A stretch of 63,575 bases of DNA, filler included, from Vannella sp. (lineage: Eukaryota): NCBI GenBank assembly GCA_023345925.1. It is 5 parts of 5 records of this genome, joined end to end, with 100 filler letters (N's around TTAATTAATTAA, not from the genome) between each part and the next. Parts side by side here need not be neighbours in the genome. Positions count along the whole stretch, not along the records: positions 19,327 to 38,101 come from JAJQQN010000363.1; 4 more parts are not named here. One strand, written 5' to 3'. The notes under the pieces are model-generated. The model worked only from the letters and a program-made list of their open reading frames with translations, was not told the origin of the DNA and did not search any database. A program made the position numbers and the translations under genes. Of this stretch, positions 32,237 to 37,966 are shown in pieces (positions within the stretch are counted from its first letter, which is position 1; each line of letters begins with the position of its first letter).

Positions 32237-35200
32237 CTACTGGACGGAATCTTTCAGTAATCTTTGGAGATTGGGAAAGGGAATGATGGGCTCCCCTTCG
32301 ATTTCTGTGAAGGAGTGTTGGCTATCGTGAATGGACTGTTGAATGTGTAGCGATTTACACATCTCACAGAGATCGTAATCTTTGCAAGTATCACACTTGT
32401 AGCGAATTCCTACGACCCGGTTCTCGCAATGGTCACAGATAGCATTGTGAAAATAGCTAGTCAGAGGACTGGCATCAGTTTGAAAGATGGATTGAGCGGG
32501 CCCTACTTCATGCATCACTCGAGAAACTTCCTGCAAGATACTTTGCAGGAAAGGAAGAACATGGATTCTACGCGGAATAGGGAAAGAGCCATCCATATCT
32601 TGATTTTGCTGCCATCTCCTCGTCTGTTCTTGTTTCTGCTTCAAAAAGATCAAAATCAGGTTTTCATCAAAGTCGTCTCCAAGTCTGCGAGGAGCAATCC
32701 GAGAGTTGAAGGCTGACTTGTTCACTTTAGTGAAGTTCTTCCACTTCTCCCGTATGACTCCCACAGTTAAATGACACTTTAAAGAGACAGTGTCACCGCA
32801 GATGGGGGTGTTCTGTTCATGATCAGTAATTTTTGCGTGCTTTCGGTCACAAGACAATGACCGGAATAGTTCCTGGGAAGCTTGAAGCCCAAGTTGGACA
32901 GGGTCTTGGACATTGGACTGGAGTTTCACAAAACTGACAAAATCGTTTTCAGAGAGAGATCCCCTACTCAACTGCTGTGTGCCGTTTTGTTTTTGAACAG
33001 CAGAGTTTCGATGGCACCAAATCTGATCCGCCACAGCAGGCCAATCAAACTTTTGGATAAATGGGGAAAGGGAGTCTTGGTTAAGGAGTTCAATCAGCTG
33101 GTCTCGCGACTGGTCCAGCAAGAGTTCTGTCGCCTTTCCAGTTTTTCCCAAAAGTCCCGCATCCTTCAGAGCAGCAACTAAATCTAATGAGGCACCAAAT
33201 CCTTCTTTGTGATCGGAAGCCTTGCAGACTTTCAGGAAGCTGTGGTAAGAAAAAGAGCTTTCTTCCACTTGGAAGAAAAGGAGTTGGTCTGGATGCTGAG
33301 CTTCTTTAACCTCCTTCAAAAGAGGAATTTGCTGTTCCACATGTTTTGCTTTGTTGGTGATTGTTATCAGAAGAGAAAGCCATTCAGGGTACTCTTGGTT
33401 TTTTCCTTCGTATGGTTGGAGAGATTCCAGCAACTGAAGAGTCGATGCTCCCACATTGGATAAAAGGAATGAGTCAAAGTTACTGTCCAAATAACTGCAC
33501 CATTGTGACTTGGCAGTAGATACAGTTACTCCATTCTCGGCGGGGAATTCACCAAGCTTGAAATCCAACGTGGTGTCTGGGCTTACGAATCTGAAGGGGC
33601 AAAGAAGGTCTTCAGGGAGGAGTTGAAAGTGAGTACTCCAATTCCTCTCCCCGCTTTTGCTCTGCTTGAAGGGAAGTGAGACATCCGATTGACCTCGGAG
33701 TACCCACTGGCCACTGGAATCCATCTGTTCTATAGAGGCAGGCATACTTTTACCAGTGTGCTTTGTCTTCCCAGAAACACTGAGCCAGTACGTAGGGCAA
33801 TCAGTACGCAGAGATTCCTTCAGGCTCTGAATTAGTCGGTCTCTCTTGGGAGCATCGTGCAGACCCAATTGCACAAACAGATCGTACTCTTTACAGTACG
33901 ACTGCTGGAGAATTCTTGTGGAAAACTGGTCAATCAGGTTGCGCAACTGAATGGCAATCGTGTAGGCCTGGGACATGCATCTAGCCAAAGCCTTTTGCTG
34001 ATCTTCAAAAGTGTGTTTCGCAATTATCTTGAGCTGTTCGGATCTCAGACTGTGCAGCTTCTCCTTGGCATATTGCAATTGCTCCATCAAATCCATGTTC
34101 CTTTGATTTGGCATTTCGACACTTCTGATAAGCTGAGTCCACTCACTAAGTTGGGGAACCAAGGATCTGCCCAATTCAGTAAAATCGTGAGAGTGCAGTG
34201 ACTCTCGGACCAGTCCTTGAGGGACAAAGATTCGGTAGTTTCGAAAATGCTTGAAAGAAGTCTGGGCGCCTAAGAAGTGCTTTTGGTGCAGCTGGCTGTC
34301 TAAAAGGTCCATCATAGAGCTCGCCATCAATTGGACTACTGGCAGCTCGTAAGAGATGTCTCTCATTTCTATCACTTGTTGATAGCACTCTTCTACGAGC
34401 CAGTTACATTCTGGAATAGATTGATAGCAATATGCTAGTTTCCTCCACTCCTTGCACCGCTCAAAGACTTCGTAACGAGTAGGAGGAGATTTGCGAGTCA
34501 TCTCCACGAAATGAAGCTCAGCTCCGAGGGAGATTTGGAAGTCCAAAGAGAGTGAGAGGGTGTTTTCCGGTTTCTCTGTGAAAGGGATGGCACTGAGAGT
34601 GTTGAGTAGATCCTCAATGGAGTTTGGGCCATCGCCAAGGGCTTCTCGGAAAAGGGTCTCAAGGTTACAAGTGTAGTCTGCTTCCCATTTGGCTTCTTCT
34701 ACTGAGAAACGACTGACTCGTATATTCAGAAAGCGTTCTAATTTCTCTTCCACTTCCAGCCTAAAGGCTCGATCCAGCAAAAAAGTATTCACTGTCTGCT
34801 GTAGTTGAATAGTTGCAGGGGAAGAGTTCGGAGCTCCGATACATCCACTCAGCTGGTCAACAATCTCCTTCACTATCCGAGTACTTTCTGAGAACCACTC
34901 ATCCCTAAATTTCTGACTGGGAAGGAGAAAGGAGAGGGTACCTTTGTGCCTTTTTTCGAAGATACCTGACGACGGTTTCCCCAGGATGTAGCACAGCATT
35001 TTGGACACATCTCTAAGCTTTTTTTTGTGTCCAGGAGACATTGTAGTAGTCTGCGCAAACTGGTAGAAAGACCAATTAGTAAGCTGAGGTAATGCCTCGC
35101 TATAGTCTATCAGAATGGTGACTTCTCGGTCGTCCACCCAACCAGAAGATACGTGCAGACTCGATTTCACAGTTTGAGGGACAAGTCGCACGTGTTTGGT

Positions 35201-37966: not shown

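Follow-up and report, generated by a model that had tools for sequence, protein, structure and literature searches.

Cas13 carries two HEPN units on a single chain. How protists defend themselves innately against giant viruses and intracellular bacteria is poorly mapped, and to our knowledge few nuclease effectors of this immunity are known. Here we describe an open reading frame, P0001, in a 63,575-nucleotide stretch of DNA from Vannella sp. (assembly GCA_023345925.1; hereafter the window). It encodes an array of TPRs, two modules that each contain the motif NxxKH and are predicted to be HEPN-like, and a C-terminal ZZ zinc finger. An initial annotation of the window had proposed that P0001 is a eukaryote sensor-RNase; its TPR and two-module layout is real, but the same two-module protein occurs in bacteria, which had been overlooked.

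HEPN RNases, as described in the sections of PMC3710099 drawn on here and below, build one active site from two motifs; some families lack the arginine of the canonical motif and may use another basic residue, and fusions to TPRs are listed. In PMC13043305, likewise used in part, the prophage Gifsy-1 protein HepS is described as a solo HEPN that is opened by ligand binding and cuts tRNA. TPR-HEPN fusions, tandem HEPNs and HEPNs without the arginine are each already known.

The two modules of P0001 are true homologues

The features of P0001 are as follows, with coordinates that count along the window and amino acid (aa) positions along the frame.

32237..37972 (-): open frame P0001; 1,911 codons, stop to stop; 5' end incomplete or spliced
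35948..37951 (-): N-terminal TPR array (TPR_12/TPR_10 type), aa ~8-675; Pfam TPR_12 E 3e-62, 11 stretches
34592..35752 (-): module 1, predicted HEPN-like helical bundle, aa ~741-1127; from the structural model and HHalign
35585-35617 (-): module 1 helix-2 motif MRTLHLLDQAF; conserved Glu E783 upstream
35531-35545 (-): module 1 VYFPI; motif scan
35264-35275 (-): module 1 LQSF; motif scan
35192-35206 (-): module 1 NDTKH, candidate catalytic motif, aa 923-927; Ala at the canonical Arg position
34121..34537 (-): short second TPR-like block between the modules, aa 1146-1284; VIA-align
32480..34105 (-): module 2, second predicted HEPN-like bundle, with two large inserts, aa ~1290-1831
33923-33949 (-): module 2 helix-2 motif QLRNLIDQF; family consensus K-L-R-H-L-L-D-Q
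33410-33433 (-): module 2 LLESLQPY; motif scan
33341-33355 (-): module 2 NKAKH, candidate catalytic motif, aa 1540-1544; Thr at the canonical Arg position
32339..32449 (-): C-terminal ZZ zinc finger, aa 1842-1878; Pfam ZZ E 2.2e-8

All of the motifs in the initial annotation were recovered by a motif scan of P0001 at or within their coordinates, and Pfam bears out a TPR array with a ZZ finger at the C-terminus. NxxKH is observed twice, compared with about 0.09 occurrences expected from composition, and in both copies the first Arg of RxxxxH is replaced, by Ala in module 1 and by Thr in module 2, as had been reported. The top VIA-align matches of the block between the modules (model positions 457-595) are TPR proteins (best Z 12.6, root-mean-square deviation (rmsd) 2.6, 108 aligned), and the layout is therefore (TPR-module) x2.

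Plain BLASTP of module 1 against module 2 gave no significant match (E 2.4). Profiles of 14 module-1 and 19 module-2 sequences matched each other (HHalign 99.2%, E 8e-20), and in cross-profile searches all of these sequences beat the best of the decoys, which comprised 200 shuffled plus reversed sequences (lowest real score 9.4 bits, best decoy 7.8). At the level of profiles, this shows that modules 1 and 2 are true homologues, in line with the expectation that they would align to each other. The same ordered motif set had been said to occur in both; the homology and the two NxxKH motifs stand, but the 'CPF' of module 2 is not the counterpart of FP. It falls in a lineage-specific insert, and the FP position aligns with 'GLH' near aa 1369.

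The 14 and 19 sequences were chosen by motif, and conservation was recounted on an unselected alignment of 33 rows, 22 of which span motif 1 and 23 motif 2. N, K and H are each present in 21 of the 22 rows at motif 1, while N is present in 20, K in 23 and H in 22 of the 23 rows at motif 2. NxxKH is thus conserved in homologues, as anticipated, and it is kept though the relatives are ~15-48% identical overall to the query. Helix 2 carries the motif E-x3-K-x-R-x-L-L-D-Q, which is most pronounced in module 2 (Arg in 16/19 rows) and less so in module 1 (Arg in 6/14). Among module-1 rows, Glu is found in 12/14, K/R four positions on in 5/14 and Asp in 14/14; the corresponding counts for module 2 are 8/19, 18/19 (Lys in 16/19) and 18/19. 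In P0001 itself, the upstream Ex3[KR] is present as E-x3-R in module 1 and missing from module 2.

The family was recovered only by an HMMER scan of representatives (query aa 690-1834), which returned 35 relatives at E <= 0.001. Fourteen are longer than 1,100 aa and 12 of these have a TPR_12 match and two KH motifs, the exceptions being P0023, which ends after the first module, and P0026, which has no TPR match. The expected variability of the TPRs is seen in 13 long relatives, which have 2-8 TPR_12 stretches compared with 11 in P0001. A variable TPR array fused to a putative effector is also the arrangement of TPR sensor-effector (Avs/STAND-like) proteins; no STAND NTPase was found in the visible part of P0001, whose N-terminus is missing, or in the 26 of the 35 relatives covered by a Pfam scan. 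Four of these 26 carry a MYND finger and one a RING finger, and this domain content suggests that the MYND- and RING-bearing relatives are eukaryotic. None of the 26 has a ZZ finger, which is a lineage-specific addition and no family trait.

Other searches returned little. Word-index homologue searches gave one match for module 1 and one for the module alignment, and with aa 690-1835 none among 6,602 long candidates. The ESM Atlas contains three unnamed bacterial clusters at 0.85-0.86 for module 1, which are leads only, and none for module 2. The modules are covered by no Pfam, NCBIfam or PADLOC model, HEPN and defence models included, and sequence searches of the PDB returned nothing relevant to them. 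A glycosyltransferase match (PDB, E 0.0014) was set aside, the aligned stretch being modelled as part of the helical module.

Predicted fold, bacterial relatives and history

An AlphaFold2 model of aa 690-1834, made with 33 sequences, had a predicted local distance difference test (pLDDT) score of 83.7 and a predicted template modelling (pTM) score of 0.83; the latter suggests that the two modules, as modelled, are fixed relative to each other. Both NxxKH motifs end a helix, which is followed by a large insert and then a closing helix. In module 1, a beta-hairpin and a helical insert separate the motif from the closing helix.

Fold comparison was conducted against 48,161 chains using L010, a stand-alone relative with a single module (242 aa; model pLDDT 80.7). 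The best match was the HEPN toxin 7ae2 (Z 9.2, rmsd 3.3, 132 aligned), followed by 1jog (Z 9.0), p130Cas (8.9) and 4nqf (8.5). The HEPN-fold search proposed in the initial annotation therefore has HEPN proteins at the head of its list, but for a relative only and tied with unrelated four-helix bundles (Z 8.9). Entry titles or PMC3710099 identify ten of the top 50 rows as HEPN, and five of the top ten are non-HEPN. In a second comparison of L010, the top eight matches were HepT-type entries. Six further rows among the top 50 of the first comparison are presumably HEPN (16 in all). Foldseek against the PDB gave no match at E <= 0.001 for either model, with HepT rows only at E ~1-3, and VIA-align of the 1,145-aa model of P0001 gave TPR matches only and no HEPN row, although single domains are easily missed at that size. 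We consider it likely from the models that the module has a HEPN fold, because HEPN proteins are the best matches and the His is in the expected place. A conserved His that closes the third core helix, with a polar residue four positions before it, is a HEPN trait, and in both models the motif ends this helix.

With L010 as query, relatives were found in 3 of 401 further genomes, in three plasmid records and in one phage, and an enlarged profile reached a class with LRSSLD..FPI..NMDKH (5 of 391 genomes). The bacterial pattern LRxxLD..FP..QP..NxxKH to which the initial annotation had pointed is that of a stand-alone bacterial family homologous to the modules. A profile of eight stand-alone proteins matched module 1 with HHalign 97.8% and module 2 with 95.2%; a profile of stand-alone sequences only scored the P0001 modules at 13.7 and 6.7 bits, compared with 2.2 for the best of 300 shuffles. 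Seven of the eight match phrog_13652, a family of unknown function (E 7e-151 to 0.011). The P0001 modules have no direct match to the phrog_13652 profile, and the eight stand-alone relatives match no PADLOC or Pfam HEPN model. A BFVD structure search found one unnamed phage protein (E 2e-6). Judged by these profile matches, the P0001 module descends from an unnamed stand-alone bacterial family, phrog_13652.

One unannotated member of this family (L018 7983-8657; phrog_13652 E 7e-151) is encoded in a lambdoid prophage region of an E. coli record, where it separates the lysis genes from the terminase genes and lies on the strand opposite to them; others occupy a slot in Bacillus phage PK1 or lie on a Bacillus plasmid. 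At L021 168-2235, a TIR_2 protein, a 273-aa unknown protein and a stand-alone NxxKH protein form a three-gene run, with the NxxKH gene downstream of the TIR gene, which is a candidate for an unnamed anti-phage operon. Four of the eight stand-alone members have an accessory-type or TIR context, positions that fit accessory defence genes, and the rest lie beside transposases, an RHS fragment or housekeeping genes. The member at L020 590-1324 is downstream of RHS-like fragments and a small frame that, by eye, is toxin-like and C-terminal.

The two-module form is, on present sequences, not a eukaryotic invention, because bacteria have it too, one example being a Coxiellaceae chromosome. When 185,579 genomes were scanned for the motif at the DNA level, two were hit: this chromosome and a 1.2-kb contig in a Chlamydiales bin, which could be misbinned. 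Bacteria of the Coxiellaceae and Chlamydiales type live inside protists. In the Coxiellaceae chromosome, the gene has the TPRs and both modules in full but is broken into pieces, and its neighbours are minC, minD and glutamate racemase-like genes; a metagenome contig encodes an intact member of 1,878 aa, flanked by SMC and alanine dehydrogenase-like genes (named by eye). Of 400 scored genomes in the phylum of the Chlamydiales bin, 4 were hit by the module profile, as were 5 of 400 in the class of the Coxiellaceae genome (one genome unscored in each), and the bacterial hits of this profile include one-module, two-module and stand-alone forms. L009 (679 aa or more) is the minimal TPR-plus-module version. 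Viral contigs yielded 0 motif matches and no confirmed relatives, and tblastn of the P0001 or L003 modules against plasmids gave nothing usable. Some members have further features: L012, L013 and L015 have a full first module and a shortened second module still with KH, the L015 frame starting with a kinase-like tail (by eye), and an N-terminal CE-clan protease-like domain is found in P0033, P0025 and L003 (2600-8236), with a catalytic Cys (by eye) in P0033 only.

A FastTree phylogeny was reconstructed from 50 modules (159 columns, rooted on L025, labels inferred). The module-2 sequences formed one clade (0.95), the eukaryote-type ones, including that of P0001, grouped together (0.951), and the TPR-fused and two-module forms grouped apart from the stand-alone ones (0.976). 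This suggests that duplication occurred once, before the bacterial and eukaryote-type copies split.

Candidate mechanism and alternatives

We propose tentatively that P0001 is a ligand-gated single-chain RNase in biological conflict, a reading of the sequence that is a serious possibility but somewhat short of probable. Each module is predicted to form a four-helix bundle of the HEPN type, whose third core helix ends with the motif, and the two modules would supply the two halves of one composite active site, in which the invariant Lys or the helix-2 Arg might substitute for the missing Arg. The variable TPR array would bind a foreign or damage ligand and switch the site on, RNA such as tRNA would be cut, and translation would be halted. 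Given a HEPN fold, an active nuclease is somewhat probable; that its active site forms within one chain is fairly probable, and 12 of the 14 long members retain both motifs, which is compatible with a shared site. Whether such a protein serves defence or another role in the protist seems to us evenly balanced. The two-module gene may have a single origin and have been passed between protists and host-associated bacteria, with zinc fingers added in the protists (ZZ in P0001, MYND or RING in relatives). A fuller history, in which an unrecognised HEPN branch with NxxKH and no Arg runs from solo prophage defence toxins through (TPR-HEPN)x2 proteins of host-associated bacteria to a single-chain RNase of protist innate immunity, directed at viruses or endosymbionts and comparable to a Cas13 that is gated by protein, is doubtful as a whole.

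Several observations weigh against this proposal. The residue before the motif Asn is A, G, S, T, N or V in all 45 module rows and Arg in none, and a conserved Arg was not found at the -2 or -3 positions of the module alignments either. The canonical Arg is required in KEN and PrrC (PMC3710099), and HepS needs its own (PMC13043305). The motif is not kept in every member: the close relative P0008 has lost KH in module 1, P0016 lacks the motif His in module 2, and in three bacterial members the Asn of module 2 is replaced. The fold comparison is not decisive: it was run on L010 instead of a module of P0001, and its Z of 9.2 for HEPN is no better than a tie with the bundles of p130Cas (8.9), catenin and vinculin and lies below the value that the tool regards as safe for helical bundles. 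The quick tree, on 159 columns, has several weak nodes. Finally, the bacterial two-module genes seen in context adjoin housekeeping genes and not defence islands, and P0033 has an N-terminal RickCE_cat domain (E 3.8e-7), CE-clan protease-like and typical of host-directed effectors.

These last two points would also fit a domesticated effector. Instead of an immune sensor built in eukaryotes, P0001 may be a protein of effector or bacterial origin, which is a live alternative: intracellular bacteria would use the two-module protein mainly as a secreted RNase or RNA-binding effector directed at the host, the protist copy would derive from gene transfer and would not be an immune sensor, and the TPRs would target it to a host complex and would not sense an invader. 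The two-module genes of the Coxiellaceae chromosome and other small-genome bacteria stand among housekeeping genes, and the module-2 clade that unites bacterial and eukaryote-type sequences is nested among TPR-fused bacterial forms. However, both motifs persist in many divergent eukaryote-type members, to which MYND, RING or ZZ fingers have been added, and this points to lasting eukaryotic use. In addition, contigs of the sequencing runs that cover P0001 have loose ends in module 2, one of which (33264) looks by eye like a homologous stretch of module 2; this hints weakly at a second P0001 copy, or a related organism, in the same runs. We regard the effector explanation as rather unlikely.

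An inactive scaffold is unlikely. Here, a HEPN fold without Arg would only bind RNA or nucleotides, and P0001 would be a TPR adaptor tied to ubiquitin or N-degron pathways via its ZZ finger. The complete absence of the canonical Arg from the 45 rows and the ZZ, RING and MYND fingers of eukaryote-type members are consistent with this, and inactive nucleic-acid-binding HEPN versions are noted in PMC3710099. However, the N, K and H residues hardly vary among stand-alone, bacterial and eukaryote-type members, a pattern not easily explained for a pure scaffold, and the sections of PMC3710099 used here reserve 'inactive' for domains without any conserved polar residues. Because the same source accepts families without Arg, its loss lowers the status of P0001 as a canonical HEPN RNase and not its membership of the superfamily.

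It is improbable that the modules are an unrelated four-helix bundle with other chemistry, such as a metal-binding or transferase site using D, N, K and H. Such a bundle could account for the five non-HEPN rows among the top ten (p130Cas, alpha-catenin, vinculin and designed bundles, Z 8.1-8.9) and for an identity of just 5-11% to the HEPN matches, but HEPN rows are strongly enriched among the 48,161 chains. Moreover, the His closes the third core helix before the closing helix, as H107 appears to do in the 6-143 chain of 7ae2 (judging from the entry title), and part of the family has the upstream Ex3K motif.

An assembly artefact, in which a bacterial contig or chimera was binned with the eukaryote, would suit the lack of an intron over 5.7 kb, the contig-end position and the bacterial relatives, but is extremely improbable: the contig also has intron-split eukaryotic genes, P0001 is covered in three biofilm DNA runs of one study at mean depths mostly of 2-7, like the neighbouring genes, one contig from these runs extends across the 3' end of P0001 into the adjoining intergenic DNA, the ZZ finger is of the eukaryotic type, and in the tree the closest relatives fall with proteins that bear MYND and RING fingers. 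The three runs may include the source sample.

The source contig of P0001 spans 19327-38101 of the window and ends 129 bases upstream of the frame. The frame opens within TPR (37966 is a GTG preceded by AG), and its first in-frame ATG is at 37669 (aa 102), where a start would remove ~100 aa of TPR. P0001 likely has an upstream exon beyond the contig end, because the frame begins inside TPR near that end. The description of an intronless 5.7-kb frame therefore holds for the visible part, which is long and open, but not necessarily for the gene.

The intron-split genes of this contig include a family-A DNA polymerase and another TPR gene. The latter (30337-31730, minus strand) is immediately downstream of P0001, has weak TPR hits and shows no link to it. 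Also just downstream, at ~31850-31970, is a short high-copy repeat with a depth of 115-300 compared with ~5 around it. An intronless 596-aa frame of repeated 'W..Q..F' units at 19461-21251 (minus strand) has no Pfam match at E 1e-4; it ends in a motif that we take to resemble a PD-(D/E)xK nuclease. The other contigs of the window carry VPS13, LsmAD, ubiquitin-conjugating enzyme and phosphofructokinase genes. Two tandem intronless paralogues at 43352-48487 and 48891-53084 (minus strand) encode Ser/Thr-rich membrane proteins of 1,711 and 1,397 aa with bacterial Ig-like domains (Big_7 match for the first). The linkers at 19227-19326, 38102-38201, 53276-53375 and 58213-58312 each consist of 44 N, a 12-base palindrome and 44 N; the window is five separate contigs, and gene order across the linkers is therefore meaningless.

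Comparison with known systems

Within this family, a solo domain encoded by phages can be linked, by way of bacterial forms fused to TPRs, to a eukaryotic gene. If the proposed mechanism is correct, the family would add HEPN chemistry without the canonical Arg and a function for phrog_13652, and a single-chain ligand-gated RNase would be useful as a tool; should the bacterial forms prove to be effectors, they would represent host-directed RNases of a new kind. In the open-access literature we found no description of the NxxKH family or of a (TPR-module)x2 layout common to protists and bacteria, although the supplementary alignments of PMC3710099 may hold the family under another name.

Members of phrog_13652 are single domains of ~230 aa, whereas the modules of P0001 are duplicated and TPR-fused. 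Among described proteins, HepT/HEPN-MNT toxins (7ae2, 5yep) and DUF86 HEPN-M proteins (1jog, 1ylm) are the best matches of L010 (Z 8.0-9.2, rmsd 3.2-3.7, 121-133 aligned) and share with the NxxKH modules a His at the end of the third core helix. P0001 differs from them in that Arg is missing from the motif, no MNT partner was seen, and the modules have large inserts and are TPR-fused and duplicated in one chain. HepS, as described in the consulted part of PMC13043305, is a solo HEPN in a prophage accessory slot that is inactive until it binds its ligand, and provides a working model for the stand-alone family and for gating; unlike P0001, it has a canonical R100-H105 pair, both residues of which are needed, forms a tetramer and lacks TPRs.

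Parep1/8 HEPN-T (section 6 of PMC3710099) has kept the His and lost the Arg, with other basic residues proposed in its place, and has also entered a eukaryote lineage. It differs in its archaeal origin, small size and lack of TPRs, and there is no Pfam match to it in the P0001 modules. TPR and HEPN are combined in one chain in LA2681, C6orf70/DUF4209, DZIP3 and STAND-TPR-S1-HEPN proteins of bacteria and eukaryotes, and DZIP3 also combines TPR with RING and other eukaryotic domains. These families keep Rx4-6H, and the same sections of PMC3710099 list none of them with two HEPN-like units per chain; the P0001 modules match none of their Pfam models. Compared with Cas13, P0001 has no guide RNA, CRISPR context or Arg, no sequence or fold similarity is reported, and a TPR array would be its sensor. 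The likeness to Cas13 lies in design, namely two nuclease halves in one polypeptide that, in P0001, would also be ligand-gated.

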